Of a stretch of DNA of 64,000 nucleotides, positions 2,139-39,916 are shown piece by piece (within the stretch, counting starts at the first letter, position 1; each line of letters begins with the position of its first letter). Both the position numbers and the translations under genes were made by a program. The notes beneath the pieces were generated by a model. It worked only from the letters and a program-made list of their open reading frames with translations, was not told where the DNA came from and did not search any database. This stretch comes from a virus. Lineage: Duplodnaviria; Heunggongvirae; Uroviricota; Caudoviricetes. Location: the IMG/VR virus record IMGVR_UViG_3300026078_000021, positions 51,539-115,538 of that record; one strand, written 5' to 3'.

Positions 2139-2139
2139 G

Positions 2140-2775: not shown

Positions 2776-2778
2776 CAG

Positions 2779-3630: not shown

Positions 3631-4331
3631 AGCTCCTTGAGTTCACTGGTGCCCGCCGCCCCGAAGTGGCGGCGACACCCGGGTAGGCCCCGCACCTCGA
3701 TCTGGTCGCGAAGCCGCGTGCGGGGCGGCAGCGCCACGTAGGTGTCGCGGGTGAGGGTGTAGTGCAGTTCGAACGTAGGCCGGTCGCGCACCTGGCAGGC
3801 GTGTATGCCGGTCAACTCGTAGCCGAACCTGGCGTTGATGCGCCGCGAGGCCATGTTGTCGCGCAGCGCGACGGTGCGCGCCGCGTACGCGCCGAGCGCG
3901 ATGAACGCCAGGTGCAGCACGGCGGCGCGCATCTCGGTTCCGTAGCCCTGCCGCTGGTAGGGCAGGCCGAGCCAGGAACCGGTGCGTACGGTGCGCTGCT
4001 GCGCGAAGTCACGGGCCGCCAGGCTCTGGACGCCGATCACATCGCCCCAGGTGCCGCGCCGAAGCACGGTGAACTCGCAATCCCAGTCCTGCTCGCTCCA
4101 GGCGTCGCGTTTCTCCCACCACCAGTCCATGACGGCTTCGCCGCGCTGCGCGGGCCCGACGTCGGTCCAGGCGTTGGTGAACGGCTGCACGGCCGGGTCG
4201 TGGATGCCGTCTTCGGCGAGGCCGGCGAGGCGTAGCAGCCATCGCTCGTCGGTGGCGCGCAGTTCCAGGCGTGGTGTGCGTATACTCAGGCCGTTTAGAT
4301 CGTGGTACCGGCGTGTCGTTATCTCGTCCAC
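3624..4331 (-). CDS. GNAT-family N-acetyltransferase (RimL-like)
   Basis: 235 aa; 'WLGLPYQRQGYGTE' matches the Q/RxxGxG/A acetyl-CoA binding motif A. Confidence 0.65.
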   Translation of the reverse strand: MDEITTRRYHDLNGLSIRTPRLELRATDERWLLRLAGLAEDGIHDPAVQPFTNAWTDVGPAQRGEAVMDWWWEKRDAWSEQDWDCEFTVLRRGTWGDVIGVQSLAARDFAQQRTVRTGSWLGLPYQRQGYGTEMRAAVLHLAFIALGAYAARTVALRDNMASRRINARFGYELTGIHACQVRDRPTFELHYTLTRDTYVALPPRTRLRDQIEVRGLPGCRRHFGAAGTSELKELC

Positions 4332-4385
4332 ACCACGTGATACTACTAGTCGGACTCCCGCTGTTTCAGCGCATTAGGTCGAATC

Positions 4386-4904
4386 ATGGTACGAACACTA
4401 AAAAGCTGCGGGACACTCGCCGCGTACCGCCGGCACAAGCGCCGGCGGGAACTGGCGTGCGACGCCTGCGTGATGGCCAGCCGCCTCTACAACTGGGAGC
4501 GCGCGCACCCCGGCGTGCCCTACGCGCCGGCGCGCCACGGCATACCCGAACACGGCACGATGCCGGCCTACCGGCGCCACAAACGGTACGGCGAGACGGT
4601 CTGCGAGCCGTGCCGGCAGGAATGCGCCCGATACGTGCGCGAACGGCGCCACGTGCGCAAACAAGCGGCGCTCGCGCGCCGGCTCGCGCCCGGCGTCCTC
4701 GCGTGGATCTACGCCCAGCACGACGCCGACCAGCTCACGGACATCCTCGGGCTGCCGCGTCAGCTAAACGGGCCCGGGTCAGCCCCGCCGTCCTCGCCGA
4801 AACCGATGCCCAGCAGCCCGAGCGCGTGGTCCACCGCGTCGCACGCCCTCTCGTACGCCTCGTCGTCGCCGGTCGCGGCGGTGGCCTCAAGCAGCGCCTC
4901 GTAG
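4386..4904 (+). CDS. putative DNA-binding protein with a duplicated zinc-ribbon motif
   Basis: GTLAAYRRHKRRRELACDAC and GTMPAYRRHKRYGETVCEPCRQ are a tandem GT-x2-AYRRHKR-x-GE-x2-C-x2-C motif. The C-terminal ~50 aa are low complexity and overlap a convergent minus-strand ORF. Confidence 0.5.
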   Translation: MVRTLKSCGTLAAYRRHKRRRELACDACVMASRLYNWERAHPGVPYAPARHGIPEHGTMPAYRRHKRYGETVCEPCRQECARYVRERRHVRKQAALARRLAPGVLAWIYAQHDADQLTDILGLPRQLNGPGSAPPSSPKPMPSSPSAWSTASHALSYASSSPVAAVASSSAS

Positions 4905-4960
4905 GCGTCGACCAGGCGGCACACGTGCCGCACCGGCACCACACGCGTCGGGGTGATGGT
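4760..4960 (-). CDS. hypothetical acidic protein (start uncertain, non-ATG)
   Basis: Protein-like segment VDAYEALLEATAATGDDEAYERACDAVDHALGLLGIGFGEDGG. The ORF-track start at 5056 would overlap the tRNA at 4989-5062. Confidence 0.25.
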   Translation of the reverse strand, partial: TITPTRVVPVRHVCRLVDAYEALLEATAATGDDEAYERACDAVDHALGLLGIGFGEDGGADPGPFS

Positions 4961-4988
4961 GGGCGTGGTCTCGCTGCGGGCGTTCACG

Positions 4989-5062
4989 TAGGCGCGACAG
5001 GATTCGAACCTGCATGCCGAACGTTTTGAGCGTTCGAGGTCTACCGTTGCCGTCACGCGCCC
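4989..5062 (-). tRNA. tRNA with anticodon CAA (Leu, UUG) but a class I body and an aberrant D-arm
   Basis: Acceptor GGGCGCG/CGCGCCT (G1-U72); anticodon arm GAACG-CTCAAAA-CGTTC; 5-nt variable loop; T-loop TTCGAAT; A73. Confidence 0.5.
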
Positions 5063-5096
5063 GGATGTGAACGCCAGAGTACCAGCCGCTGGATTG

Positions 5097-5318
5097 TCAG
5101 TCGGTGGCCGGCTCGAACGTCACCAGGTAGTTGCCGCCGAGTTCGAACAGGTCGGCGACCTCGTTCTTGACGGTGAGCGAGAAGTCAAGCGCCGGGGTGT
5201 ACTTCGCCCACTGCTTATTGCGCCCGTCCTGGTAGTCAGGCAGGAACTTCAGGGTCGTCTCTCCGGACGCCACCATGTTCTTGCCGGTGTTCTTGACCTT
5301 GGCGGTGATCGCGCTCAT
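5097..5318 (-). CDS. hypothetical small protein
   Basis: Trimmed to the internal Met (MSAITAKVKNTGKNMVASGETTLKFLPDYQ...). Confidence 0.45.
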   Translation of the reverse strand: MSAITAKVKNTGKNMVASGETTLKFLPDYQDGRNKQWAKYTPALDFSLTVKNEVADLFELGGNYLVTFEPATD

Positions 5319-5393
5319 GCGCTTCCTTCGAATCGAGGGAGGGGTTCCCTCCCGCGCGGGCCCTCGAACCACGCGGGAGGGAAGTTCAGGGGT

Positions 5394-5798
5394 TTACTCG
5401 TCCCGGCCGTATGCCTGGTCGCGGGCGCGACGCAGGACACGGATGAGGTCGTTCAGTTCGCTGCGGCTGAAGACCATGGAGAAGGTCTCGCGCTCCTCTT
5501 CCAGCAGGTCGACGTCGCGCACGGCGTCGCGCTTGGCGAGGGCGTCTTCCAGGCGGGATACATACTCTTCCCATGGAACGTTCTTGCGCTCTACCAGGGA
5601 GACCTGCACATTGCCGGTGCGGTCATGTCCAGCGCCGGCCCAGCGCACGGAGAGCTGGGGCCACACGTCGGTGGTGATGGTGCACCCGGGGGGGCAGCCC
5701 TCACCGGGCAGGCAGTCGTGGTGCATTTGCTGCACCACGGGGAAGCCGATCAGTTCTTTGGGCATCACGCCACGCTCCATCACGGAGAGGTTGTGCAT
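5394..5798 (-). CDS. hypothetical protein
   Basis: 134-aa ORF; Cys/His-containing N-terminus and an acidic helical C-terminus. Confidence 0.45.
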   Translation of the reverse strand: MHNLSVMERGVMPKELIGFPVVQQMHHDCLPGEGCPPGCTITTDVWPQLSVRWAGAGHDRTGNVQVSLVERKNVPWEEYVSRLEDALAKRDAVRDVDLLEEERETFSMVFSRSELNDLIRVLRRARDQAYGRDE

Positions 5799-5815
5799 GT
5801 ACGACGGTTGTCGTA

Positions 5816-5886
5816 GAACGCCTGACGGGATTCGAACCCGTGTGCGCGGCTTTGCAGGCCGCCGCCTCGCCTCTCGGCCACAGGCG
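5816..5886 (-). tRNA. tRNA-Cys(GCA)
   Basis: Anticodon arm GCGGC-CTGCAAA-GCCGC; U73; 71 nt. Confidence 0.8.
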
Positions 5887-5889
5887 TAC

Positions 5890-5960
5890 GAGCTGATGAC
5901 CGGTGTCGAACCGGCGTGTCCCGCGTGGGAGGCGGACGCTCTGCCGTTGAGCTACATCAG
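5890..5960 (-). tRNA. tRNA-Gly(CCC)
   Basis: Anticodon arm TCCGC-CTCCCAC-GCGGG; T-loop TTCGACA; U73. Confidence 0.75.
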
Positions 5961-5961
5961 C

Positions 5962-6041
5962 GTGGCGCGTCTAGGAATCGAACCTAGCCAGCGGTGAGCG
6001 ACTGATTTACAGTCAGCCTGACGTCCCAGCGTCGGACGCGC
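5962..6041 (-). tRNA. tRNA-Tyr(GTA), class II
   Basis: Anticodon arm GCTGA-CTGTAAA-TCAGT; long variable arm; acceptor GGCGCGT/ACGCGCC; 80 nt. Confidence 0.75.
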
Positions 6042-6325
6042 CAAGGGTGGGACTACCCGTTGATGGTAGCGCCTTGGCGTCGTCGCAGGTTTTGTGGCAC
6101 GGCTTGCCGGTCAGCGGGTGGCGCAGCAGGGCGGTGCATCCGCAGTACACGCAGACACCCATGGTGCCGAAACGCGCGGCGGGGGCGTGGGACCAGTCGA
6201 CGGCGCCCCAGGGGGTGCGCCCGTTCTTCGCGAGCGCGGCGGTGGAGCGGCGTGGCGGCATGCGCGGTCCTGGTTGTTCTAGGACTGTGGATGCACGAGT
6301 CGCATCATGGGGATAGTACGGTGCT

Positions 6326-13629: not shown

Positions 13630-13773
13630 GGAGCGGGTCTGGTCGAGGGTGAACGGCACGGTGACGCGGTCGAGCACGGTGGGCCTCCGGGCGGGAAGGA
13701 GAGAGCCCCGGCGGGTCGCGCGCCGGGGCTCTCCTTTGTGCAGCACGTCAGGCTACGCCTACGGCACACGGGA

Positions 13774-13787: not shown

Positions 13788-14030
13788 GGGGAAGGCCCCG
13801 GGGGGCGATCCGGGGCCTTCCGTGTCTGTCTTGCAGGGTTGTGCACCTCACGCGGATGAGATCCGCGTGGGAATTACGACGATAGCACCAGAACAGTGGC
13901 GCGGCCAGTAGGAGAAAGGGGCTCCTCCCATGAGGACTAGGAGGAGCCCTACACCGACAGATACGCTCACGCGCATCCCCCACTCGGCGGCGCAGTGGTG
14001 TCGTGTCACCACGCACGCGTACAGTAGCAC

Positions 14031-14049: not shown

Positions 14050-14922
14050 TTAACGCCACTCGAACAGGCCACCGGGCTCGATCAGCGCCGTATCCAACCG
14101 CCACGCCACACCCGCGTGATCGCTCGCGCCCATCGGCGCATCCAGCGTCCAGTACCCGGTCACCGCCGAACGCAACGGCACCGTCACCCACCCCCCGTCG
14201 ATCCGATCGAACTCGCTCGTGTGTGTAAGTACACTGTGATCCTTCCTCGCGTTCGCGTACTCCCACGCGACGTCGCACCAACCGTTGTCCACGAACGCCT
14301 GCGCCACCGACCGATCCGCCACGGGCGACCACGTGCGTGCGGTACCCGGCAGCGCACGCGACCCCAAGTTGTATGGCAACTGCGTCGCCCAGTTCGGCGG
14401 CGGGTTATGCGGATTGGCCGGCGAGAAGTTCGTGTCACCGCCCAGCACCCCGTACGCGCCCCACCGGTACGGGTGCGTCGCCACATACTGCGCCTCGATC
14501 CGTGCCGCGTCCGCCGAATACGGCGTCAGCTTGTACGAACCCACCGCGAGCGGCAGCGGCAGACCGACGTCCCACGCCCCGATACTCCACCCGTGATAGC
14601 TACGGTCGGTGGTGTCCTCATGCAGGACCCCTATTCGGCCTTGGCCGAGCGGTTGCGGAAAGCCGACGGTCTGCTGCCGATACATGATGAGTGTCGCGAG
14701 CCCGGAACGGGAACGGCCGGGTCTCAGCGCCTCCAAACCCAGGTCGTCCTGCGCGCGTTTGATCAGATCCTCGTTTTCGGCCCAGCCTTTGCATTCGTTG
14801 AGCAGCACGAAGTCGTACGGCTCCGGGGTGCCTTCGGTGATGCGTTTGACGACCAGCGGCCAGGGGTCCGGCTCGCCGGGTTTCGGTGGCAGCAGGCTTT
14901 GGACGACAAAGGTCAGTTCCAT
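14050..14922 (-). CDS. endonuclease/exonuclease/phosphatase (EEP) family protein
   Basis: RBS GAAGGAG before ATG 14922. 'VLLNE', 'GGDTN' and 'SDHAGV' are the EEP catalytic motifs. Confidence 0.6.
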   Translation of the reverse strand: MELTFVVQSLLPPKPGEPDPWPLVVKRITEGTPEPYDFVLLNECKGWAENEDLIKRAQDDLGLEALRPGRSRSGLATLIMYRQQTVGFPQPLGQGRIGVLHEDTTDRSYHGWSIGAWDVGLPLPLAVGSYKLTPYSADAARIEAQYVATHPYRWGAYGVLGGDTNFSPANPHNPPPNWATQLPYNLGSRALPGTARTWSPVADRSVAQAFVDNGWCDVAWEYANARKDHSVLTHTSEFDRIDGGWVTVPLRSAVTGYWTLDAPMGASDHAGVAWRLDTALIEPGGLFEWR

Positions 14923-15099
14923 GGGTGCTCCTTCGGGGGTAAACGGGGCCGGCCCCTCCCGTATCTCAGACGGGAGGGGCCGGAGGGGTGGCCTGGTTCG
15001 GGTGCGCTTACCAAGCGCGGGCCACCCGGTTGGGGGCTCGGCGCGAGCCATCGCCAACGAAGTCAGACCATAACACTGATACGGGGGTGAGCGCCACAG

Positions 15100-15378
15100 T
15101 CACCCATCCGACACGGCACGCGCCGCTGCCTCAATGTCCGCAACCGCATCCAATATGAGCCCACGCGGGACAGCCACCATGACGCCACTGCCGTCGAGGT
15201 GATTGCCCTGCGGAACGTCCCCGGTCGGCACTAGGGCCTTCCCGACGAGCGCGATGCTGCCATCACTGAGCAGAAACACGTCAGGGCAGTTCATGTCGTT
15301 CGTGCTACCGCGCTGTGCCGGTGTCGTCCCCAGCCGGCGCACAATGCTTACCGCCGGGTCCTGGCCCGTCTCGCTCAT
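15100..15378 (-). CDS. hypothetical small protein
   Basis: GGAGGTGGGAGT sits before ATG 15378 (MSETGQDPAVSIVRRLG...). Confidence 0.45.
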   Translation of the reverse strand: MSETGQDPAVSIVRRLGTTPAQRGSTNDMNCPDVFLLSDGSIALVGKALVPTGDVPQGNHLDGSGVMVAVPRGLILDAVADIEAAARAVSDG

Positions 15379-15403
15379 ACTCCCACCTCCACGAAAGGAA
15401 CGG

Positions 15404-15607
15404 TCATGACGCCATGCGGGAGGTGTCGCGGAGCAACGCCTCCACGTCAGGCCGACCACTGGACATCAACTGCTGCACGCGCGGACCCGAAATACCCGCA
15501 AGGTGCCCGACCGCCCGCTGCGAGAAGCCCTCATCCGACAGCTTCCACGCCTCGTGGCGCCGCCACCGCGACACGAGCACAACCATCTCTTGCAGCGCGG
15601 CCTCCAT
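15404..15607 (-). CDS. small HTH DNA-binding protein (start uncertain, may extend upstream)
   Basis: 'LSDEGFSQRAVGHLAGISGPRVQQLM' is an HTH. The longer ORF-track N-terminus is Arg/Cys-rich and unlikely to be coding. Confidence 0.4.
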   Translation of the reverse strand: MEAALQEMVVLVSRWRRHEAWKLSDEGFSQRAVGHLAGISGPRVQQLMSSGRPDVEALLRDTSRMAS

Positions 15608-16353
15608 CTCGCAGTACTCGACGAACCGCCGTGTAGCCGAGTCCCGCGCCCGGATGCGCTGCAACTGCTGCGCGAAGCCTTCGTGAAGCGCGGTCGGCGG
15701 CTGCGCCACAGACGACCTCCATGAAACAGGGCTGCCCCTTCCCGCAAGAAGGGGCAGCGATCCTCGAAGCAGACCCAAGCAAGGTCGGTCACACCATAGC
15801 ATCATGCTCCGGGGGAGTGGCAGCCTCCGTAGATTGCCACTCGACCTGCTCCCAATGCCGCACAGACAACCCCCATGCGCCCTCAAGCACCTTAACCATG
15901 ATGCGCCACGCCTGCGCCTGCTCGCCGGGCGTCGGCAACGCCATGATCCGGCCGATCTCCAGGCCGAGCCGCCGCTGCATCCCCATCGGGTCCGGCGGAC
16001 CCAGTCCACGACGACGCCACAACCGGCCCGTCCCACTCGCCACGCGCCGACAACTCGCGCCAACGCGTGTGAAACCACTCCGAGTGAGCACGAGCAACAC
16101 CATCCACGACTGGCAGCGGAGAACCACAGAGACGACAGCGCACCATCACACCATACGCACACGGACGGTAAGCGCAACCCCCTGCGACACAACAAGGCCG
16201 GCCCTCGTTGGCGCGAGGGCCGGCCTTCCCGGTGCGTGCCGGTCAATGCCGCCCGGTCCATCCACCGCTGACACTACCGACTCGGCGACCCCGGCGGCGC
16301 CGAACCGGACGGCTGTCCGGCAACCCGGACAACACTAAACGCGAACCTCGTGG

Positions 16354-16845
16354 TCACTCGACGTCCAGCGCAGGAAACAAGCCCACCCCACACCCCAGAA
16401 CCGCAGCCCATATCAACAACCTCACCGGACGCGGATTGCCCTGACCCGACTCCCACCGCATCACCGACCACCGATGCACACCCACACGCCCGGCCAACGC
16501 GCTCTGCGAAACCTTCCCCCTCACCCCACACAACGCCACAGCCAACCGGCGCATCTCCCGGGCCTGAAACTCCAACGCGTACGGAACATCCGGCGCCAAC
16601 ACCTTGCCGCCCCGGGTGACCCGCACAACCAGGCCCACCTCACGCGCCCACAAGATCAAATGCTCCATCGTCGGTGCGTCGCGCCCCACCACCCAATCCA
16701 CCACCGTCCCCGGCGTAACCCCCAAACGCTCCGCCAACACGCGCTGCGTCCAACCAGCATCCTGTCGTGCCCGATCAAGCTGCCGCACCAACGCGAACAC
16801 ATCAGCGCGCGCCTGCGACTCCAGGCCCGGATCAAACCCCACCAC
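16354..16845 (-). CDS. XRE-family regulator with two HTH domains
   Basis: 'WTQRVLAERLGVTPGTVVDW' and 'VSQSALAGRVGVHRWSVMRWESG'. Confidence 0.7.
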   Translation of the reverse strand: MVGFDPGLESQARADVFALVRQLDRARQDAGWTQRVLAERLGVTPGTVVDWVVGRDAPTMEHLILWAREVGLVVRVTRGGKVLAPDVPYALEFQAREMRRLAVALCGVRGKVSQSALAGRVGVHRWSVMRWESGQGNPRPVRLLIWAAVLGCGVGLFPALDVE

Positions 16846-17407
16846 TCACCTCCGGCTTGACTACCGTCATCACGTACCAGCCCTTACCGTGCCGCGACTC
16901 GACAAGCCCCTGCGCCTCCAAAGCGAGCAACGCGCACCGAGCCGTATACGCCGAGACACCAAACCGCGCGGCGAGACCCGGCACGGTCGTCAGTCTCACA
17001 CCAGGGCCAAGCCCACGCTCCTGGATCTTCGCCGCCAACTCGGCGGCAATCTCCAGCGGACCGGGCGCGCTGCGCTCACTTGGCTGGCCCACATACCAGC
17101 CCCGCGTGGGCACCGAGTGGATCAAACCCTCCCCGGCGAGCTGCGAGAGCGCCTTACGCAGCGTGTTGCGTGAGGCACCGAAACGCGCCGACAGTTCAGC
17201 CTCGCTGCCGAGCTTCGCCGGCCCCGGGTGTGTCGGCTCGGTGGCGGCGACCTGTTCACGCAGCTTGCCTGCGATCTGCTGGAACGTGCAGCGGGGGCCG
17301 CGAGCACCCACATGTCCTCCTGTTGCGGTTACGGCCGGTGGGGTGGTGACGAGCCGCCGTGCCGGCGGGCGCGTACGCGGCGGACGAGACGGGAGATGGG
17401 ACACCAC
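16832..17407 (-). CDS. GntR-family regulator with two winged-HTH domains
   Basis: 'SARFGASRNTLRKALSQLAGEGLIHSVPTRGWYV' and 'AARFGVSAYTARCALLALEAQGLVESRHGKGWYV'. The N-terminal ~40 aa are probably not coding. Confidence 0.65.
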   Translation of the reverse strand: MVSHLPSRPPRTRPPARRLVTTPPAVTATGGHVGARGPRCTFQQIAGKLREQVAATEPTHPGPAKLGSEAELSARFGASRNTLRKALSQLAGEGLIHSVPTRGWYVGQPSERSAPGPLEIAAELAAKIQERGLGPGVRLTTVPGLAARFGVSAYTARCALLALEAQGLVESRHGKGWYVMTVVKPEVSGGV

Positions 17408-17468
17408 GAAGGCATACTCATACTAGAAGTATTACAGAGGGCTGCGATTACGCAACCACCCGCGACCC

Positions 17469-18119
17469 TCACGGCCGAAACACCCAATCGACCATCGGTG
17501 CCGACCCCCAGCACCCCCACCACGCCTGGCCGCGACCAGTGCGCACCGCCATCCTCCACAAGCAAAACTTCGCCGTACGATCACCCAACGCAGCCGCGCG
17601 CCCAAACGCCGACCACGCCAGCCCCGGCTTGCCCAGCACCATGTATGTCACACCCGCACCAAGCAGCGCCTCGCGGTCCTCGACGCGCGCCGCGACGGCC
17701 GCCACCAGGATCAGCGCCTCCTCGTGCGCGCCCTGCCGGTGCGCGATCTTCGCCAGCCTGCACAGCTCGCGCTCGTCACCGCGCTGCAATACCCGCGAAC
17801 GCCAAACAGCCGCGCGGCGCGTGTGCCCTAGCCGCTCCAGCACGGACACCAGTTGGTACGCGGCACGGGTGTTCCCGCGAACGGACGCGCGTTGTAGTCG
17901 CCATGCCAGGCACCAACTCGGCAACCGAAACCATCTAGTAACACGGATCACGGGGCGATGGTACAAGACGGCAATGGCAAAGTGGAGGCGACCCCGCTGC
18001 CCCGGCGAACGAGGCCGCCTCCACTGCGCCCGGCCCGACCGTGCCAACGGAGGAAGCCAAGCGAAAGAAGTCATACCATAGCTAAGAAGGTGGGGGATAG
18101 GCCCAACCCGCACGAGCAC
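17469..18119 (-). CDS. hypothetical protein with TPR-like helical repeats
   Basis: 216 aa; repeated A/L-rich helices. Confidence 0.35.
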   Translation of the reverse strand: MLVRVGPIPHLLSYGMTSFAWLPPLARSGRAQWRRPRSPGQRGRLHFAIAVLYHRPVIRVTRWFRLPSWCLAWRLQRASVRGNTRAAYQLVSVLERLGHTRRAAVWRSRVLQRGDERELCRLAKIAHRQGAHEEALILVAAVAARVEDREALLGAGVTYMVLGKPGLAWSAFGRAAALGDRTAKFCLWRMAVRTGRGQAWWGCWGSAPMVDWVFRP

Positions 18120-18121
18120 AC

Positions 18122-18604
18122 CTAACGACCGCCCGGCAAGTCGTACACAGTCACGTCCACGCCACCCTTGACCAAATTCGAGCGGATCAACGGCTCAACC
18201 CGGTCCCACGAACCCCCAGCCAACCCACACCCGATCCTCGGCATGTGCACCGACGCCCCCAGCTCGACCGCGACAAACGCCAGCAACCCCAGCGCCCGAT
18301 CAAGCGCCTCGTACCGCACCGCCGGAGCGCCCGGCCGACTATACCCATGCTGGCCGATCATGTTCGCCACCCGCACGTCGGGCTCGACACTCACAAGCCG
18401 CACCCCGCCCAACATGAAACCCGTATCTGCGCCAGCCCGGTACCACGACCGGTAGGCAGCCTCCGCTTCCGGCCAACGGTGCGAGAGTGCCGCCGCAAAC
18501 CCGCGACCCCAACCGCCGGCGTCGTTGCACACGTGCGCGATGATCTTGCTGCCGGAGCCGGCTGGTGCCGTGGCGTCACCGGCCATATAGGCGAGAGTGC
18601 TCAT
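18122..18604 (-). CDS. macro-domain (ADP-ribose binding/hydrolase) protein
   Basis: 'KIIAHVCNDAGGWGRGFAAAL' and 'VHMPRIGCGLAGGSWDRVEPLIR' are macro-domain motifs. Trimmed to Met 18604. Confidence 0.75.
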   Translation of the reverse strand: MSTLAYMAGDATAPAGSGSKIIAHVCNDAGGWGRGFAAALSHRWPEAEAAYRSWYRAGADTGFMLGGVRLVSVEPDVRVANMIGQHGYSRPGAPAVRYEALDRALGLLAFVAVELGASVHMPRIGCGLAGGSWDRVEPLIRSNLVKGGVDVTVYDLPGGR

Positions 18605-18698
18605 TCGGACAGTATGACAAGACGGCGCGGGGAGAAACGACGAACGGCCCCACGTGACGAGTGGGGCCGTTCGCCAGCAGGATCTCTTGGCAGAGACA

Positions 18699-18712
18699 CA
18701 CCGTAGCACTAA
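18699..18712 (-). promoter_or_regulatory. class 2 motif accgtagcactaat
   Basis: Lies between the RNB gene stop and the macro-domain gene start. Confidence 0.4.
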
Positions 18713-20521
18713 TCACTGTGTGTCGAGGTGCCCCATCAGCTCGGCCGCCGCCTGCGCCTTAGCCACCTTCTTTGAACCCCCGGACCCCCGGCCCTCCACC
18801 ACCACATCGCCCAACCGTGCCGTCAACACCGCGTCGAACACCAAACCAGCCGTACCAGCCCGAGCCATACCCGCAGTGACCTTCCACTCCACCTCACGCA
18901 GCCGCCCCGTCATCCGCGCATGGTTAAGCGCCTGCATCGGATTATCACAGGCCGCCGCGCCCGCACGGGGCGACTCCACCACCGACACAGTCGAATCAAC
19001 CAAATCACCCGACGGATCTGGGACACCAGCGAGCACCGCCAAAACACTCAGCGCCGCCTGCGCCTGCGCGGCCTTCTTAGTCGACGCCGATCGCGCCGCA
19101 CCCTGCACCAGCACGCCCGCCGCGTCACCGACACAGCCCGCTACGACGAACACCGGCGCATGCGACGGCCCAGCCGACTCATCCCGGTACACCGGCGGGT
19201 CCACACCGCGCGTCACCGCATGCATCGCCACCAGGCTCACCGCCCAGTCCACCCGCCGGCACACCTGAGCAAGACACGCCGCCTTCGCCGCCACCCACTC
19301 CGAGCCCGACGGCAAAAGCAGCAGGTGATACAGATCCCGCAACTCCAGCAGATCCGCGTCCGCACGTCGGCACACCTCCGCCAGAAACCCCGGTGACGCG
19401 ACGCCTTCCTTCGTGGCCCGCTTCACCAAAGCGAAGAACCGGCTAGCCGTCATCTTCGGATAGTCCGCGCCATGATCAAGAATCCCGCGCGCGATCTCGT
19501 GCGCCGCCACCCGCGCAGCCGCGCCGTCAGCTGCCTTCGCCTGCGCGATCACCACCGTCAACCGGTCACAGAACCCTGCCACCTGCTCCTGCGTGAACAA
19601 CGCCGGGCGCCCATCCAAATACGCCACCATGGCCTGCTGCGAAACCATGTCAGCAGCCCGACGCAAAGGGCTCGTCGCGTGACAGTACACCGCCGCACCC
19701 AGGCCATGATGCCCACGCGGAAACGCACCATACGTCGCCCGGCGCCCCGTCAACTCCGCGCGCCGCAACCACAACGCCAACTCATCCGGGTCCTCGCTCT
19801 CCAACGCCGCCGACAGATCCTCAAGATGCACAGCAGCAGGAGCCGCACCCGACGCGGCAACGTGATTACGGTAGATCACCGGCACATCGTTCTCCACCGC
19901 CCACGTCGCCACCGCCCGGTTCGCCGCGACCATGCACTCCTGCACGATCAGATGCCCGACGATGCGCGCCGGCTTCACCCGCACCAACGCACCGTCCTCA
20001 TCCACGAACACGCCACGCTGAAAATCGTAGAACGCGCTCGTCGCACCGAGCCGCGCACGAAACAGCGCCTCCGCAACCCCCCGCAACGCACACAACGACC
20101 CGTGATGCGGATCATCCGGGCGCCGCACAGCCTCCGCGACCTCATCGTGCGTGAGCGCCACCGCGTCCGCGAGCTTGCCCCGCGACACCAACGCCGGACC
20201 CGGCACAGCGCAGGCGTCCAACGGCATGCGCACCTCAATCACAGGACGCACCTCGCCCTGCGCCAACGTGCACGCGGCCTCAACGTCCGGCGGCAGCATC
20301 GTCTCCACCGCCGCGTGCCCCCGGTACCGTGACGCGCCCCGCGTGAACGCCAACTCGGTCAAACCCGGATCGGCAGTGATGGCGTCGGTCAGATCAGCGA
20401 CGTACACAGTCAGGGCGCGCGGACCATCGCTCGCGATTTCGAGGCGGATCGCGTCGTCACGGTCGCGCGTGCCCGCCCCGTCGATCATGTAGGCGACGGT
20501 GCCGCCCGTAGACATATCCAT
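18713..20521 (-). CDS. RNB-domain exoribonuclease (RNase II/R family) with C-terminal dsRBD-like repeats
   Basis: 602 aa; 'HHGLGAAVYCHATSPLRRAADMVSQQ' is the RNB active-site motif. Two C-terminal 'GSxKKxAxAxAAxxxL' dsRBM-like segments. Confidence 0.75.
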   Translation of the reverse strand: MDMSTGGTVAYMIDGAGTRDRDDAIRLEIASDGPRALTVYVADLTDAITADPGLTELAFTRGASRYRGHAAVETMLPPDVEAACTLAQGEVRPVIEVRMPLDACAVPGPALVSRGKLADAVALTHDEVAEAVRRPDDPHHGSLCALRGVAEALFRARLGATSAFYDFQRGVFVDEDGALVRVKPARIVGHLIVQECMVAANRAVATWAVENDVPVIYRNHVAASGAAPAAVHLEDLSAALESEDPDELALWLRRAELTGRRATYGAFPRGHHGLGAAVYCHATSPLRRAADMVSQQAMVAYLDGRPALFTQEQVAGFCDRLTVVIAQAKAADGAAARVAAHEIARGILDHGADYPKMTASRFFALVKRATKEGVASPGFLAEVCRRADADLLELRDLYHLLLLPSGSEWVAAKAACLAQVCRRVDWAVSLVAMHAVTRGVDPPVYRDESAGPSHAPVFVVAGCVGDAAGVLVQGAARSASTKKAAQAQAALSVLAVLAGVPDPSGDLVDSTVSVVESPRAGAAACDNPMQALNHARMTGRLREVEWKVTAGMARAGTAGLVFDAVLTARLGDVVVEGRGSGGSKKVAKAQAAAELMGHLDTQ

Positions 20522-20548
20522 GCGACCAGTATGACGAAGCGGGGCGTC

Positions 20549-21007
20549 TTAGCGAACCACAATCAGAGCGTCCACGCCACCCGCCACCAGCCCACACACC
20601 AAACCCACAAACAACATCGCCGGCCACGGCGGACCATACGCAGGCTGCAAATCACGCCGACCACGCAACCGGCTGTAGATCACCGCCCACTGCACGGTAG
20701 CGCCCATCACCACCCCCGCCATCACGCACGTCTGCACCGGCGACGCGAACACCCGGCCCACGACACCATCCAGCAGCGCCAACAACACACAGCCACGCGC
20801 CACCGTGCTCAACAACCGCGCGGCACGCTCATCCGGCTCGGGATCATACCGATTAGACACGCTGGTGATGCTACAACCAGCGCTGCGCTGCCCCCGGCCG
20901 ATCGTAATTTCATAGACGAATACAGTGAGCCCCCAACCACCACCGGAAAACGACACGACGAGCCCCGAAAAAGACACCCAGGGGAACCCCGCAAACCGGA
21001 CAATCAT
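20549..21007 (-). CDS. hypothetical integral membrane protein
   Basis: 152 aa with 3-4 hydrophobic helices; first gene downstream of the regulatory region. Confidence 0.4.
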   Translation of the reverse strand: MIVRFAGFPWVSFSGLVVSFSGGGWGLTVFVYEITIGRGQRSAGCSITSVSNRYDPEPDERAARLLSTVARGCVLLALLDGVVGRVFASPVQTCVMAGVVMGATVQWAVIYSRLRGRRDLQPAYGPPWPAMLFVGLVCGLVAGGVDALIVVR

Positions 21008-21079
21008 ATCGTAGCTGGAAAAGAGGGGTGAGGCGCAAGGAAGAGGGGGGCTGTGCGGTGCGCGGCACGACCATGATCA

Positions 21080-21130
21080 TTTACCCCCTGACTTGTCAGC
21101 GCGTTGACATGCAACAGCTGACACTGGCCT
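21080..21130 (-). promoter_or_regulatory. promoter-like TTGACA elements in the lower-GC leader region
   Basis: ttgacttgtcagcgcgTTGACAtgcaacagctgacact; strand assignment tentative. Confidence 0.3.
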
Positions 21131-21359
21131 GCTTCCTACACGGGTTGGACTAAGTCGTGAAGCCTCGTGACCTGCGAAGATCGTTCTAGCTGGCAGGGTG
21201 GACATACAAGATCACCATTCCCTAAGTGCGCAGGTGGCAGGGCACGGCAGCGTGTCAACTACATGTCTTGGTAGGCACACCATAATCACAGTTATGTGAG
21301 CGTGATATTCGGTATCCTCGCAGGTCAGAATTGTGTGATGAATTCAGCGTCATTCTCAC

Positions 21360-21780
21360 GCAATACTGAGGTATTCCAGTACAGCAAATTGGAATACCCC
21401 AGTATGGACAGCACACAAAACGGCACTGGAGTACCCCAGACTGACGTACTCCAGTCACAACACAGCACACTGAACTGAGGTACTCCAGTCCGCCGGCCCG
21501 CCCTAGGCAACACGGCGCAGCACCGAGCGCGGTCGCTGCCTACCTCATTTGCTGAGTCTTTCTCACTATCCCGGGTTGGTATTGTTTTCACCGCATCTTT
21601 TTGCCGTGTTATGTATGGGTATGCGGGAGGGTGACCCTCCTTTACTGGGGTACTCCAGTTAGGCGGGGGTGTCCGCTGCGTTATCAACATCTGGACACTC
21701 TGGTCTTGATTTGCTAGGCGGGGGTGTCTCTCGTCCGGTTTCGGCCGGCGGTCCCTACTGGGGTACTCCAGTCTCACCGT
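21360..21780. repeat. array of 7 copies of a 16-bp palindrome ACTGG(G/A)GTAC(T/C)CCAGT (operator/iteron-like)
   Basis: Copies near 21366, 21391, 21427, 21445, 21476, 21644 and 21758 (the last two identical). Adjacent copies form larger inverted repeats. Local GC is clearly lower than the flanks. Confidence 0.7.
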
Positions 21781-21884
21781 GTGCCCGTGCGGGCCCGCGT
21801 AGGGCCCGTGCGCGTGCCTGGGGATGCGAGCGGGCCCACCTACCCGTGTGGGTCGGTGGGCCCGTGTGGCGCGCCGTGTGTGGC

Positions 21885-22292
21885 TTAGTCGGTGGCGCGT
21901 ACGCGTCGCACTCTGTGCTGTGCGTAGGGGTGCGCGATGTTGTACTGGGCGCGGTCCCGTAGCGCGTCCGCGTGTCCCTCGTTAGTGTCCGGGTAGGCTG
22001 AGACTTCCTCCCATTCGAGGTCCGGGCCGTACTTTCCTTGAATGACCCATTCGTGGGTCGGTTTGTCGAGGTCGCCCGGTTCGGCCGGTCGCACGTGTCG
22101 TATCTGTCCGCGTGCGTTGAGGGTGAGCACAACGGGGCCCTGTCGGTTTTCGCTGTTTTCGATCATGTAGTTAACTTGTGCGCCTGGGATGGTTTCGAAC
22201 GTGCTGCCGTCGGTGCAGTGCACAGTGTGACGGAACGTTCCGGATTGGTGCCGTTCAACGTCTTTGATCGTTTTGACGGTTTCGCTCGCCAT
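21885..22292 (-). CDS. hypothetical protein
   Basis: 135 aa; conserved GGAAACGATCATG start context. Confidence 0.5.
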   Translation of the reverse strand: MASETVKTIKDVERHQSGTFRHTVHCTDGSTFETIPGAQVNYMIENSENRQGPVVLTLNARGQIRHVRPAEPGDLDKPTHEWVIQGKYGPDLEWEEVSAYPDTNEGHADALRDRAQYNIAHPYAQHRVRRVRATD

Positions 22293-22302: not shown

Positions 22303-22506
22303 TTACTGTTCGGTTACGGTGAGGATCTTGTTACCTTCGGCCGTCGGGAAGTTGATACCGAAGCTTTCCCATGCTTCAGCGGCCCCGTGCGCGTGTACGG
22401 ATGCGCGTTGCTTGTTCCCGTCGGGCCGTTCGATCACTGCGACGTATTGGCGGTATCCTCCGCCGTTCGCGTCCGGACCTGGGTCGGTGGTAAACACGGA
22501 TTGCAT
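22303..22506 (-). CDS. hypothetical small protein
   Basis: 67 aa. Confidence 0.4.
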   Translation of the reverse strand: MQSVFTTDPGPDANGGGYRQYVAVIERPDGNKQRASVHAHGAAEAWESFGINFPTAEGNKILTVTEQ

Positions 22507-22521
22507 GGCTGGTCTCGCTTT

Positions 22522-22746
22522 CTAACCGGTTACGAACACTTGCCGTAGGTCGTGCCCGTTGTCGCTGGGGTATGTGCGTTCGAAGTGTGCGGCAGCGTCG
22601 CTCATGCTCTGTGCGAGTGTGCTCGGTTCGATGGTTTCGGTTCCGTTGTCTGTCTTGCGGTAGACGATGGCGCGGTAGTTCCGGAACGGTGGCGTTTCGT
22701 CGCGTTGTGCTGCCCGTGCGCGTAGCCGCTCGGCAGTGTCGCTCAT
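22522..22746 (-). CDS. hypothetical small protein
   Basis: 74 aa; GGAAACGATCATG start context. Confidence 0.4.
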   Translation of the reverse strand: MSDTAERLRARAAQRDETPPFRNYRAIVYRKTDNGTETIEPSTLAQSMSDAAAHFERTYPSDNGHDLRQVFVTG

Positions 22747-22759
22747 GATCGTTTCCGTT

Positions 22760-23170
22760 CTAGTTGATCTTGCCGGTTTCGGCGTAGTCGGCGTATGCGT
22801 CTGCGAGCGTGCGCCGTAGGTTGGGCCCCGTGTCGGTGGCCTCGGCGCGCTGGACCATGGCGCGGTATGCGTCTGCGAACGCGTACGGGTCGGGAGCGTC
22901 TGCCCGTAGTGGCTCGTCTAGCGCATCGCGTCTGCCCGTGGCGTATCCGAGTGCGATCATGCGTTCGCGGTAGTGCGGCTCAGTCTCGCTAGGGTCGGGC
23001 CGTTCGGTGCCGTCGGTTAGTGACTCTTGGTAGTTGCGTGCGATGAACCGCTCGATTGCGTCCGCCATGGCAACGCCAGCCTCGTATTCAGCATCGTTGC
23101 TTTCGAGTTCTAGCGCGTTGCACCAGTCTTTGAGCGCTTCCCGTAGTTCGGTGGCATCCGGTTTGGGCAT
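22760..23170 (-). CDS. hypothetical acidic protein
   Basis: Trimmed to Met 23170 with AGGAAACGATCATG context (MPKPDATELREALKDWCNALELE...). Confidence 0.45.
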   Translation of the reverse strand: MPKPDATELREALKDWCNALELESNDAEYEAGVAMADAIERFIARNYQESLTDGTERPDPSETEPHYRERMIALGYATGRRDALDEPLRADAPDPYAFADAYRAMVQRAEATDTGPNLRRTLADAYADYAETGKIN

Positions 23171-24528: not shown

Positions 24529-24587
24529 CGGAGTTCCGTTCTGTTGGGTTGGGCTGGCAGACAGAATCGTCTCGCGCGCACTCCACC

Positions 24588-24598
24588 GTGTCAAGCCT
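24588..24598 (-). promoter_or_regulatory. conserved promoter motif AGGCTTGACAC (class 1)
   Basis: Part of a 22-nt block conserved at 24578, 27326 and 29119; TTGACA -35-like on the minus strand upstream of the gene start at 24528. Confidence 0.5.
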
Positions 24599-24655
24599 AT
24601 GGAGCATGGCAAGTAGCGGGCCCATCCCCAAAACGGGCCCGCTACCGCCGGCGGA

Positions 24656-27277: not shown

Positions 27278-27335
27278 GGTGTGGTCTCCGTTCGGTGGGT
27301 TGTGTACTGAGAGCAGCATTGCACAGCACTCCACC

Positions 27336-27346
27336 GTGTCAAGCCT
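27336..27346 (-). promoter_or_regulatory. conserved promoter motif AGGCTTGACAC (class 1)
   Basis: Same 22-nt block as at 24578; upstream of the large-gene start. Confidence 0.5.
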
Positions 27347-27378
27347 ATAGAGTGTGTGATGTTACCGAACCGTGATGT

Positions 27379-29073: not shown

Positions 29074-29128
29074 GATCGTTTCCTGCCGGTCGGTGGGGTG
29101 TCCACCAATCATGTCGCTTTGCTCCACC

Positions 29129-29139
29129 GTGTCAAGCCT
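29129..29139 (-). promoter_or_regulatory. conserved promoter motif AGGCTTGACAC (class 1)
   Basis: Third copy of the 22-nt block; upstream of the gene start at 29073. Confidence 0.5.
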
Positions 29140-29750
29140 ATCCGGCAAAGGATCTCCGGACAGTCCACCTGGGCCGGTCGCTACCGGCCCGGATACCGCG
29201 CGCATACCCGCCGGCAGCGCCATACCTTGCCAGCTCACGCGTGCGGGCCCTATTCTCAGACCCTGGAAAGCGCACTCGGCAGGCAATACGCCGGTACTCG
29301 ACCGTTGACATACGGTGCTGAGTGCCAGTGTGTTGACTCGTGCGTGATCTTGGCCCGTGCGCTGATTCTCGCGCGCACGGGCCCGGGGCCACCCCCCCGC
29401 CGGCCCGCCGCGCGCCCGCACGTGGGGGAGAGGATCGGCCAGCCGGCGCGGTCGGGCGCATTGACCATGAAAGCGCTAACGGGCCGCGCACGCCGGCTAC
29501 GAAGGTGACGGCAGTGTGTGAGGCACGGGCGCGACCTCGGCGGGGGATGTGACACGCCGTTGCGCTAGGTGCGGCGGGAGTATCGCGGCACGTTGCCGAT
29601 GTAAGTGCGCGGAGCTGGGCCGGCGCGTGGGGGTGGCACCGGCACGGGCGGGTAAGCGAAAGCGTGCGCAGCGGTTCGGCCGGAGTGAACTAATAGCGTT
29701 TGTTCTTGTTAGCGTTTAGCGTTTCCTTCACAGCCGCGCGGTGTAATAGC

Positions 29751-29850
29751 TTTTTACCTTTCTACCATTATTTAAATAGCGAGCGCTAGCGCTAGCGCTA
29801 GGGCCCTTTTTTGGTTTTACTATTGCGCCCGTATGGGGTCCGTATGGGGG
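29751..29850. repeat. ~85-bp AT-rich element with an (AGCGCT)x3 palindrome + GGGCCC + T-run; copy 1 of 2
   Basis: atagctttttacct...aaatagcgagcgctagcgctagcgctagggcccttttttgg...attgcgcccgtatgg. About 90% identical to the copy at 38326-38406. Sharply AT-rich in a 70%-GC context. Could act as a bidirectional terminator-like hairpin. Confidence 0.65.
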
Positions 29851-34314: not shown

Positions 34315-34422
34315 GTGTGGGGCTCCGTTTCGGTGCGGGTGGCGGGCCCCGGTGTACTTCCGGTGTGGCCGGTGACGCGGCCGGGGCTTGCGACACAGCT
34401 AACTCTATCGCATCACTCAATC

Positions 34423-34433
34423 GTGTCAAGCCT
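34423..34433 (-). promoter_or_regulatory. promoter motif AGGCTTGACAC (class 1)
   Basis: caatcgtgtcaagcctgt; upstream of the gene start at 34314. Confidence 0.45.
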
Positions 34434-34443
34434 GTTGGGGTAG

Positions 34444-36797: not shown

Positions 36798-37246
36798 GGG
36801 GTGTGCTCCGTTCGGTTGGGGTTGTTGACGGCAACATTAGTCCCCGCACTCAACTGTGTCAAGCCTGTAGAGTGGTCAGGGTCTAATACCGCCCCGACCT
36901 CGCCCGTAAGCTGTGCCACCGCCGGCGCGAGCCACCCCCGCACGCACTGAACCGTCATCGCTAGCGCCGCTTCCCCGAACTGATCCGCCAGCGAACGGGC
37001 CGGATCGTACGGCACGGCGAACCGCGACACCCGCGCGAACGTGAACTCAGTGAACGAATACACCGGCAACAGGTGAAGATCCACCCGGGGGTCACCCGAA
37101 GGCCACACCCATTCGGTGTCCACCTGCCACCGGTCGCTGTCATCGCCCACGAACCGCGCGTCTCCCGCCGGCCGGGCCGTCAACAGGTAACGCAGGTCCG
37201 CAAAGCTGCTCTCCAGCCACATACGCTCCAACACGGCGTGAAGCAT
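36794..37246 (-). CDS. hypothetical protein
   Basis: 150 aa. Confidence 0.4.
   Translation of the reverse strand: MLHAVLERMWLESSFADLRYLLTARPAGDARFVGDDSDRWQVDTEWVWPSGDPRVDLHLLPVYSFTEFTFARVSRFAVPYDPARSLADQFGEAALAMTVQCVRGWLAPAVAQLTGEVGAVLDPDHSTGLTQLSAGTNVAVNNPNRTEHTP
36856..36866 (-). promoter_or_regulatory. promoter motif AGGCTTGACAC (class 1)
   Basis: caactgtgtcaagcctgtag; upstream of the gene start at 36797. Confidence 0.45.
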
Positions 37247-37802: not shown

Positions 37803-37860
37803 GGTTGCGGTTCCTTCCGTGTGCCGTAGGATAGGTCCAACATTACTCCCGTACTCCATC

Positions 37861-37871
37861 GTGTCAAGCCT
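37861..37871 (-). promoter_or_regulatory. promoter motif AGGCTTGACAC (class 1)
   Basis: ccatcgtgtcaagcctctag; upstream of the gene start at 37802. Confidence 0.45.
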
Positions 37872-37911
37872 CTAGAGGGAGGCGGCCGACACGCCGACCA
37901 GGGGAACCGCC

Positions 37912-38325: not shown

Positions 38326-38406
38326 ATAGCTTTTTACCTGGCTATTAATAGCGAGCGCTAGCGCTAGCGCTAGGGCCCTTTTTGATTTCAATATTGCGCC
38401 CGTATG
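38326..38406. repeat. ~85-bp AT-rich (AGCGCT)x3 palindromic element; copy 2 of 2
   Basis: aataaatagctttttacctggctattaatagcgagcgctagcgctagcgctagggccctttttgatttcaatattgcgcccgtatgg. Confidence 0.65.
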
Positions 38407-38896: not shown

Positions 38897-39874
38897 TTAG
38901 CCGAGCGCCGCCGCGACCAGGTGCGCCGGGTCGCGCTCCAGGCGGCGCGCGGCCCGCTGGTAGCGGCGGGTGGTGCGCGGGTCGGCGTGTCCCATCGCGT
39001 CCTGTAGATCGTCGAGATCCGCGCCGCGCTCGGTCGCGATCGTGGCGAAGGTGTGGCGCAGCGCGTGCGGGGTCACGGCGGTGGGGTCGGGCAGCCCGGC
39101 CTCCTGTGCGAGGCGGCGCACGAGGCGGAACACCTCGCTTCGGTCGACGGCCTTGCCGCCGGAGGTGACGAACACCAGCCCTGTCAGGTCCTTGACACGT
39201 ACCCCGGCTTGTTTGGCGCGCGCCTTGAGGTACACGTCCAGTACGGTGCCGGTAGCGACGGGCACGGCGCGGGCGATCCTTTTGCCGCCCTTGCCGCGTA
39301 CGGTGACGGTGCGCATGCCCTTGGCGGTGCTGAATGCGTCGAGCGGGAGTTTGCACACCTCGCTGACTCGAATGCCCAGTTGCAGCATGAGGCGGACCAT
39401 GACGGCGTCGCGTAGGGCGTTGGGGGTTTCGCGCTGGTCGGCGTGCTCGATCAGGCGGCGGGCGGATGCCTCGTCGAGCCACGCGGTGGGGGAGTAGTCC
39501 CGGTCGACCTTGGGGCGTTGCGCGGCGGCGAACGGGTTGCGCTCGTGCTCGTCGCAGGCGATCAGGTGCCGGTACCAGGAGGAGACCGCCGCCATGCGCC
39601 GCGCGGCGCTGGCCTCGGACAGGGGCCGGGGGTTTGCGCGGGAGTCTTGGAGCCAGGCGCCGAACAGGTCGGCGTCGGGTTTGCGCGCGGTCAGCACGTG
39701 CACGCCGCGCTCGGCGCAGAACGCGCCCCAGGCGCGCAGGTCGCGGGCGTAGGCCTCGCGGGTGTTGGGGCGTTTGGTCAGCAGCCACGCGGCGGTGGCT
39801 TCGGCGATGGGGTCTTGGTCGCGGGTGTCGTAGGGGTGCAGGGCGGTGTTAGTGGTGGCGATGGTGGTGTTCAT
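38897..39874 (-). CDS. int: tyrosine-type site-specific recombinase/integrase (XerC/D-like)
   Basis: R...HxxR...Y catalytic residues: 'ALRDAVMVRLMLQLGIRVSE', 'HALRHTFAT', 'GHADPRTTRRY'. Confidence 0.85.
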   Translation of the reverse strand: MNTTIATTNTALHPYDTRDQDPIAEATAAWLLTKRPNTREAYARDLRAWGAFCAERGVHVLTARKPDADLFGAWLQDSRANPRPLSEASAARRMAAVSSWYRHLIACDEHERNPFAAAQRPKVDRDYSPTAWLDEASARRLIEHADQRETPNALRDAVMVRLMLQLGIRVSEVCKLPLDAFSTAKGMRTVTVRGKGGKRIARAVPVATGTVLDVYLKARAKQAGVRVKDLTGLVFVTSGGKAVDRSEVFRLVRRLAQEAGLPDPTAVTPHALRHTFATIATERGADLDDLQDAMGHADPRTTRRYQRAARRLERDPAHLVAAALG

Positions 39875-39916
39875 GGTGGGCTCCCCGGAAAACACAGTCA
39901 CGCGTCGCGCGCAACA

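Follow-up and report, generated by a model that had tools for sequence, protein, structure and literature searches.

The largest intergenic spacer of a 64-kb stretch of phage DNA (64,000 nucleotides, positions 51,539 to 115,538 of the IMG/VR record IMGVR_UViG_3300026078_000021; hereafter the window) contained an array of seven near-identical 16-bp sites. To judge from its sequence, this array probably, if only on balance, represents a set of double-stranded operators to which a two-headed winged-helix protein of the GntR type would bind in order to control the 7-kb transcription unit that follows the spacer. This interpretation is based on the enrichment of the sites, their confinement to a non-coding control region, the geometry of their half-sites, the non-compensatory nature of their variation, and the presence of candidate regulators encoded downstream. 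An earlier note on this DNA had already proposed an operator array for a dimeric repressor; as far as the operators are concerned, this remains the best-supported explanation, in view of enrichment, geometry, and candidate regulators, although binding by a protein is a prediction. Most likely, the array belongs to a conventional type of regulatory region and does not define a new class of element; it is of use mainly as a way into a phage lineage that is otherwise an orphan.

Seven sites in a non-coding spacer

The seven sites conformed to ACTGGrGTACyCCAGT and spanned 408 bp (21365-21772; Table 1). When up to three mismatches were allowed, ACTGGGGTACTCCAGT gave 12 strand hits at seven places, compared with an expectation of 0.16, and none of 100 shuffled sequences reached this number. 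The 16-mers were thus enriched over shuffled sequence. On its better-matching strand, each site differed from ACTGGGGTACTCCAGT at zero to two positions, only s6 and s7 being exact copies. Further copies were found neither in the rest of the window nor in 20 kb of flanking genome, which together represent about 84 kb of a genome of approximately 115 kb, and half-sites were not enriched outside the array. Along the plus strand, the orientations of the sites were + - - + + + +, so that s1 and s2, as well as s3 and s5, make larger inverted repeats, as noticed earlier. The centre-to-centre spacings (23, 37, 15, 34, 170, and 113 bp) did not display helical phasing.

The sites turned out to be pseudo-palindromes instead of the palindromes described before. 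Indeed, position 11 was T in all seven sites, whereas its dyad partner, position 6, was G (six sites) or C (one site), and hence never complementary. Upon alignment in a common orientation, every site consisted of two unequal halves, namely A(C/T)TGGA(G/A)T, which is strict, and (A/T)CTG(G/A)(G/C)GT, which is looser. Random dealing of seven A-type and seven non-A-type halves would produce such a strict and loose pair in every site in 128 of 3432 cases (0.04). This fixed asymmetry fits a binder with two non-identical heads. T-6, G-5, and T-1 were invariant in all 14 half-sites, the TGG and CCA elements were located 6 bp apart, and the central bases read GGTACT or GGTATT throughout. Five to seven of the eight possible Watson-Crick pairs were present per site, and the differences between sites broke pairs without compensation. 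A role of the GTAC core in restriction or methylation was also rejected, as GTAC is not avoided (232 occurrences observed versus about 190 expected). Besides the sites, the distal part of the array contained two copies of a 14-nt direct repeat, TAGGCGGGGGTGTC; including copies with one or two mismatches elsewhere, six occurrences were counted versus 0.97 expected.

The spacer itself (21008-21884; 877 bp) was the largest gap between genes in the window, and its guanine-plus-cytosine (GC) content of 0.58 was tied for the lowest of any gap, with a trough of 0.47-0.48 next to values of 0.66-0.70 around it. None of its reading frames showed the order of GC contents at the third, first, and second codon positions (GC3>GC1>GC2) that characterizes real genes. 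The only long open reading frame over the repeats (150 codons; 21325-21777, minus strand) had flat values of 0.56, 0.52, and 0.58 at the first, second, and third position, respectively, and thus lacked a coding GC3 signal; a small protein covering the repeats, which had been named as a finding that would speak against the array, is not indicated by this frame. Furthermore, in three of four assemblies no gene was called in the spacer, and no Rfam family matched it. The description of a low-GC, non-coding gap between two gene blocks that are both on the minus strand was therefore confirmed.

Less support was found for the several TTGACA promoters mentioned in the earlier note. Exact TTGACA hexamers occurred twice in the spacer, at 21104 (plus strand) and 21253 (minus strand), and 35 times across the window, where 15.5 were expected, but neither of the two in the spacer had a -10 partner. 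A looser scan retrieved only weak -35/-10 pairs in the low-GC stretch, namely GTGAGA-18-CACAAT on the minus strand and GTGATA-18-CAGAAT on the plus strand, each with four of six matches in both boxes. The minus-strand TTGACAC box at 21258 is doubtful as a promoter because its -10 position reads CACCTG. It resembles a promoter family present at six minus-strand places (24594, 27342, 29135, 34429, 36862, and 37867), in near-identical cassettes of promoter and leader (24578-24604, 27326-27352, 29119-29145, 34413-34439, 36846-36872, and 37851-37877). These cassettes are composed of ctaTAGGCTTGACACgGTGGAGTgc, a spacer of 16-17 nt, a TAnnnT-like -10 box, a leader of about 45 nt, and ATG. The conserved spacer of all six promoters contains TGGAGT, which is also found in the strict half-site of the array. 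This link remains a weak post hoc lead, given that half-sites showed no enrichment elsewhere.

The downstream unit and its candidate regulators

The spacer is flanked upstream by an orphan gene encoding a protein of 135 amino acids (aa), the stop codon of which is followed by a GC-rich hairpin that probably acts as terminator of the upstream unit, and by a second, smaller hairpin. Downstream, ten tightly packed minus-strand genes follow, encoding a hydrophobic protein of 152 aa, an RNB+dsRBD exoribonuclease (second gene), a protein of 160 aa, a tandem GntR protein, a tandem XRE protein, and others. The 160-aa protein belongs to the PHROG family phrog_335, which carries the annotation phosphatase (8.5e-34), and its only Pfam match, Macro, was below threshold. 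Three terminator-like hairpins close the unit, the first two of them with short CUUU-type U-runs on their 3' side. All ten genes shared an excess of G over C (+0.20 to +0.62) and of T over A (-0.30 to -0.91) at 4-fold degenerate sites, with the opposite bias in both flanks. This shared synonymous bias, which could be due to an operon-specific mutational bias or to a mosaic module, is consistent with a single unit. Together with the upstream hairpin and the three closing terminators, it indicates that the spacer heads a discrete unit of 7 kb.

Table 1. Coordinates of the sites, signals, and genes in and around the repeat array (window numbering)
Feature	Position	Strand	Characteristics
Site s1	21365-21380	+	ACTGAGGT (loose half) followed by ATTCCAGT (strict half) on the plus strand
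Site s2	21388-21403	-	ATTGGAATACCCCAGT on the plus strand; inverted relative to s1
Larger inverted repeat s1/s2	21363-21378 / 21390-21405		16-bp arms
Site s3	21425-21440	-	ACTGGAGTACCCCAGA on the plus strand; inverted; one base in common with s4
Site s4	21440-21455	+	ACTGACGT followed by ACTCCAGT
Site s5	21474-21489	+	ACTGAGGT followed by ACTCCAGT
Site s6	21644-21659	+	Exact ACTGGGGTACTCCAGT; distal, 170 bp from s5
Site s7	21757-21772	+	Exact ACTGGGGTACTCCAGT; distal, 113 bp from s6; adjoins the upstream terminator hairpins
14-nt direct repeat TAGGCGGGGGTGTC, copy 1	21660-21673	+	Abuts s6
14-nt direct repeat TAGGCGGGGGTGTC, copy 2	21715-21728	+	Between s6 and s7
Lowest-GC stretch	21240-21360		Just downstream of s1 along transcription; GC 0.47-0.48
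TTGACAC box	21252-21258	-	14 of 17 bases of promoter family TTGACACGGTGGAGTGC; CACCTG at -10 position; 107 bp downstream of s1
135-aa gene, orphan	21885-22292	-	Upstream of the spacer
GC-rich hairpin	21831-21864	-	21 nt past the stop codon of the 135-aa gene; -31.2 kcal/mol, z = -5.1; without U-tract
Second, smaller hairpin	21790-21807		Array begins 18 bp beyond
Downstream unit	14050-21007	-	Ten tightly packed genes
Tandem GntR gene	16832-17311	-	159 aa; two fused winged-helix domains; leading candidate binder
Tandem XRE gene	16354-16842	-	162 aa; two HTH_3 stretches; second candidate binder
Three terminator-like hairpins	13919-13949, 13790-13821, 13700-13734	-	Stems of 12-14 bp; close the 7-kb unit

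Two proteins encoded in this unit are natural candidate binders because of their proximity to the array, the most likely one being the 159-aa tandem GntR protein and, failing that, its XRE neighbour with two helix-turn-helix stretches. Their genes are adjacent and overlap, and each of them has one type of DNA-binding domain doubled. If the sites are indeed operators, the assignment of the tandem GntR protein as their binder is a tentative one, which is more easily doubted than the operator function itself. The N-terminal domain of this protein had YvoA/NagR as its best match among solved structures (8e-9) and also matched DasR. An AlphaFold2 model, based on eight homologues, contained two winged helix-turn-helix domains with a predicted local distance difference test score (pLDDT) of 77, and its Foldseek matches comprised the DNA-binding domains of YvoA, DasR, and AraR, as well as the tandem winged helices of SelB. 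The tandem architecture was kept in the eight aligned homologues; 121 cluster representatives were retrieved at an E-value of 1e-10 or lower, many of them matching across both domains, and some homologues possessed three to five winged helices. Homologues of the tandem GntR protein were also present in integrative conjugative elements of Nonomuraea and Streptomyces, beside HD and NUDIX genes. Two further GntR genes occurred in the phage, one of 70 aa (40208-40420) and one of 142 aa beside the replication genes, shortly past the end of the window. No copy of the motif was found near either of them, leaving the array as the only candidate operator region for the regulators encoded in the operon.

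In the proposed mechanism, a regulator encoded in the unit (21007-14050) would act on the array that precedes its own gene, giving an autoregulatory circuit. The two heads would divide each site between them, one on ACTGGA(G/A)T (strict) and one on (A/T)CTG(G/A)(G/C)GT (looser). Cooperative binding, possibly with looping of the DNA, may extend over the five proximal sites, which lie within 125 bp, and both perfect sites of the distal part, which are located 170 and 283 bp farther upstream. By either repression or activation, the occupied sites would control the output of a weak promoter, presumably located in the low-GC stretch just downstream of s1, and they could in addition block read-through from the upstream unit. 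In its most specific form, namely a single-chain pseudo-dimer of two fused GntR winged helices that binds asymmetric 16-bp operators, loops to the distal sites, and autoregulates a phage RNA-metabolism operon, the mechanism is rather doubtful. If true, this form would provide the first functional assignment for a widespread, uncharacterized tandem or multi-GntR winged-helix architecture. If the general model holds, the array would supply a protein and its site as a pair ready for testing, for tandem GntR winged-helix proteins that lack a described function. It would further illustrate how fused DNA-binding domains allow operators to drift from strict symmetry, and would mark where an unusual RNA-metabolism operon is controlled, in a phage that additionally encodes 31 transfer RNAs (tRNAs) and a Ro60-like protein.

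The arms of the sites match those of the consensus of the DasR-responsive element (dre) of Streptomyces, ACTGG...CCAGT, the core of which is TCTAGA. As in the dre sites of GntR/HutC regulators (DasR, NagR/YvoA), a 16-bp dyad carries arms of the type A(C/G)TGG...CCA(G/C)T with half-sites six bp apart, and this TGG-N6-CCA geometry points to GntR/HutC operators in particular. The earlier naming of GntR and XRE regulators was a reasonable one. However, the centre of the array sites is GGTACT instead of TCTAGA, and seven sites occur in one 408-bp array, whereas dre sites occur once or twice per promoter. Also, the candidate binders differ from a HutC-type homodimer in that they lack the UTRA effector domain, which was absent from all phage GntR proteins (70, 142, and 159 aa), in that one of them is a single chain of two winged helices, and in that Arg38 is not conserved. 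In the crystal structure of NagR on GTGGTCTAGACCAC, half-sites GTGG and CCAC are positioned six nucleotides apart, base-specific contacts are made only to G-7, G-5, and G-4, and the central bases are touched only via the backbone; natural NagR sites are imperfect palindromes (PMC4333415).

Similarities with the multi-operator regions of temperate phages, such as lambda OL/OR and those of phiC31, consist of the presence of several graded dyad sites, predicted here to be bound by one phage regulator, of which the distal ones could cooperate with the proximal ones. The repressor of the Streptomyces phage phiC31 binds conserved inverted repeats of 17 bp. Unlike these, the array sites are not spread over many promoters. 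The array is not accompanied by a divergent repressor/cro pair, both neighbouring units being transcribed in the same direction, nor was it seen to overlap a recognizable -35/-10 pair. The suggestion of an immunity or lysogeny switch was accordingly not upheld, since that pair is missing here and the integrase and CI-like XRE genes are located at 39-45 kb. A precedent among actinophages is the repressor of cluster A mycobacteriophages, a single polypeptide that contacts an asymmetric site with two DNA-binding domains and can stop an elongating polymerase (PMC9283540). Cluster A stoperators are fully asymmetric, distributed genome-wide, and in one orientation relative to transcription, whereas the array is composed of pseudo-palindromes within 408 bp, of which two out of seven are inverted. 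Moreover, the cluster A repressor combines a helix-turn-helix with an unrelated second domain, whereas the two domains of the phage tandem GntR protein are homologous.

Competing explanations for the array

Several observations weigh against operators for a regulator encoded in the unit. A consensus scan for a complete sigma-70-type promoter between 20400 and 22500 yielded none, the looser scan mentioned above giving only four-of-six matches per box. Comparative support was lacking, as every contig bearing the array came from the same phage, with at least 99% identity. In phages with RNB proteins that are 63-71% identical, the genes upstream of RNB are tightly packed, and spacer and motif are absent; similarly, no comparable array occurred near the tandem GntR homologues in the integrative elements of Nonomuraea and Streptomyces. 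The motif scan covered about 84 kb of the genome of approximately 115 kb, with about 30 kb outside it. The asymmetry of the half-sites could also originate from duplication of one asymmetric ancestral site. With regard to the tandem GntR protein, the inter-domain geometry of the model is unreliable (predicted template modelling score (pTM) of 0.45), the Arg38 of NagR is missing in all four phage GntR domains, and Arg48 is missing in domain 2 of the tandem protein. Arg48 and Gly69, both NagR reading residues, are kept in only some of the phage GntR domains.

The sites could be operators and yet serve a protein of the actinomycete host, namely a DasR/NagR-like repressor of the GntR/HutC type acting on ACTGG-N6-CCAGT, in which case the array would respond to the nutrient state of the host or titrate the factor, and phage expression would be tied to host nutrient sensing. 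The arms of the sites and the 6-bp separation of their half-sites are those of dre, NagR contacts the six central bases via the backbone only (PMC4333415), and the full NagR reading set is kept in none of the phage GntR domains. Yet, the central GGTACT differs from TCTAGA at five of six positions and is conserved, and a fixed asymmetry between strict and loose halves is not expected from a symmetric homodimer. In addition, a two-site pattern retrieved only two chance-level hits in 185,579 species genomes, a search that covered paired sites and not single host sites. A host regulator is thus considered unlikely. About equally unlikely is an origin of replication, possibly a second, plasmid-type one, with the sites as iterons for an initiator and the 47%-GC stretch as unwinding element, as in the iteron-type origin suggested by the earlier note. 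Clustered dyad sites do adjoin the 120 bp of lowest GC content (21240-21360), a property that promoter regions share, and the spacer is the largest non-coding gap. This is similar to a lambda-type origin, in which four to five dyad-symmetric repeats adjoin a low-GC stretch. The cumulative GC skew, the inspection of which had been recommended, is lowest at about 21 kb, and at 4-fold sites the sign of the skew changes precisely at the spacer. However, this sign changes back at 13.7-14.0 kb, the plus-strand genes at 64-74 kb display no mirror-image bias, and RNB homologues in other phages are neutral at 4-fold sites, which together indicate that the skew belongs to one gene block (14.0-21.0 kb); GC skew was consequently rejected as evidence for an origin. 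Moreover, the proximal spacings (23, 37, 15, and 34 bp) are not helically phased, and neither Pfam nor PHROGs revealed initiator, helicase, or primase genes between 14 and 32 kb. Lambda iterons are regularly spaced and located inside the initiator gene, and in this phage such a layout occurs elsewhere, at about 65.0-65.1 kb, some 44 kb from the array. Indeed, a gene just past the right end of the window encodes a 299-aa protein with an N-terminal domain found in the PHROGs families annotated as replication initiation O-like (5e-14 and 3e-9), and is followed by a gene for a DnaC-like loader (8e-40). Within this O-like gene, at approximately 64997-65141 in window-equivalent numbering, one palindrome of 23 bp (ACTGGTACGAAATGCGTACCAGT), a perfect one of 16 bp (TCCGTACTAGTACGGA), and four direct copies of GTAcGGAATyCGrA were found, together with a local drop of the GC content to 0.57, after which comes an A-rich stretch. 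This region is the probable lytic origin, corresponding to the lambda layout with the origin inside O, and none of the observations calls for a second, plasmid-type origin at 21 kb.

A function of the repeats as RNA or single strand was assessed as well, in which hairpins of a leader or antisense RNA would mediate attenuation, be processed, or serve as substrate of the dsRBD-containing RNase encoded downstream. The pair s1/s2 can fold at -23 kcal/mol and s3-s5 at -37 kcal/mol, the z-scores of the whole 461 nt amount to -4.8 and -5.6 on the two strands, the weak plus-strand promoter candidate points into the array, and the second gene in the unit is that of an RNB+dsRBD nuclease. However, both strands will fold in this manner whenever a palindrome is present in inverted copies, so that these z-scores do not discriminate and folding of the whole region was judged uninformative. 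Hairpins of single sites are weak (-6.3 and -7.5 kcal/mol), the differences between sites are not compensatory, with an A-C mismatch in five of the seven sites of the sense transcript, no Rfam match was obtained, and homologous sequences that could display covariation were not available. An RNA element is therefore regarded as very improbable. Marginally less credible still is a centromere-like or packaging site that loads ParB, ParR, a TubR-type adaptor, or a small terminase. Centromeres are usually built of multiple repeats in one non-coding stretch, adaptors of the TubR type have winged helices, and the differing end points of three assemblies imply a circular or circularly permuted genome (see below). 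Nevertheless, among the genes of the approximately 84 kb examined, no member of the ParA, ParB, ParM, ParR, TubZ, or terminase families was detected, and the array is flanked by orphan genes and an RNase.

Genome context and comparative searches

The phage, treated here as an uncultivated actinophage, was recovered by exact-protein look-ups on soil metagenome contigs of 109-115.5 kb, with a mutual identity of 99-100%. The end points of these contigs differ among three assemblies, indicating that the genome, of about 115 kb, is circular or circularly permuted. A blastn search of the region among 50,697 deposited phages (INPHARED), in modes for both near and distant matches, retrieved no nucleotide relative. 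The window has a GC content of 65-72%, and nearly every gene in it is located on the minus strand. Recognized products, besides the RNB+dsRBD exoribonuclease, are a TROVE/Ro60-like protein, a tyrosine recombinase, a C5 methyltransferase, a DUF2637 protein, RecT, a PD-(D/E)XK nuclease, HU, Lsr2, and a LuxR-type protein; a WhiB protein is encoded just past the right end, as are the O-like initiator and the DnaC-like loader.

Searches for the array in other genomes were negative. The exact 16-mer gave only 17 single chance hits in IMG/VR, and locus searches in IMG/VR seeded with the RNB protein or the 135-aa protein found nothing. Homologues of the RNB protein with 47-71% identity were located in six loci of other large phages, in which neither the spacer nor the motif was found, and the tandem GntR locus of the phage-plasmid ZL12 possessed no comparable array. 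Repeats of the 11-mer CTGACAGAACC in a Streptomyces element proved unrelated. The two-site pattern was absent from IMG/VR, its two chance hits being those in the GTDB species genomes mentioned above. In metagenomes, it occurred at 39 loci, all of which were low-GC tandem or minisatellite repeats and were discarded, two of them being apparently eukaryotic. The latter contigs carry head-to-tail minisatellites of nearly the same 16-mer, TACTGGGGTACTCCAG in three copies (1815-1866) and CCTGGGGTACCCCAGT in three copies (85-137), a likeness that was judged to be coincidental. In the literature, the motif matched only PCR primers.

Part of the gene content is centred on RNA (1634-6042, 43654-43727, 60192-61899, 41713-43377, and 18122-20521). 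This is the case for the 31 tRNA genes, which are organized in arrays, the TROVE/Ro60-like gene, and the genes for the RNB+dsRBD exoribonuclease and the 160-aa protein of the PHROG family annotated as phosphatase. Neither a Y-RNA nor a tmRNA was found at Rfam thresholds. Directly upstream of the 135-aa gene, an 865-bp stretch (22303-23168) with three small genes (67, 74, and 136 aa) was present in the window and in one ENA assembly and missing from the JGI 3300010396 and ERZ27256653 contigs, representing a presence/absence polymorphism. In one sample, region 39009-45645 assembled into a 6.6-kb contig of its own. This region contains the 3' end of the recombinase gene, the 70-aa GntR gene, the Ro60-like gene, a tRNA-Pro gene, a ribbon-helix-helix gene, and two XRE genes, along with tRNA-like 3'-end fragments (43485-43512, 43623-43647, 43822-43846, and 45160-45187), and possibly represents an insertion or a variable cassette that retains remnants resembling att sites. 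Lastly, a 57-nt repeat, the two copies of which are 86% identical (29755-29811 and 38327-38383), comprises a perfect (GCGCTA)3 palindrome between an A-run and a T-run. Each copy lies directly past the stop codon of a minus-strand gene, and the repeat looks like a conserved bidirectional terminator.

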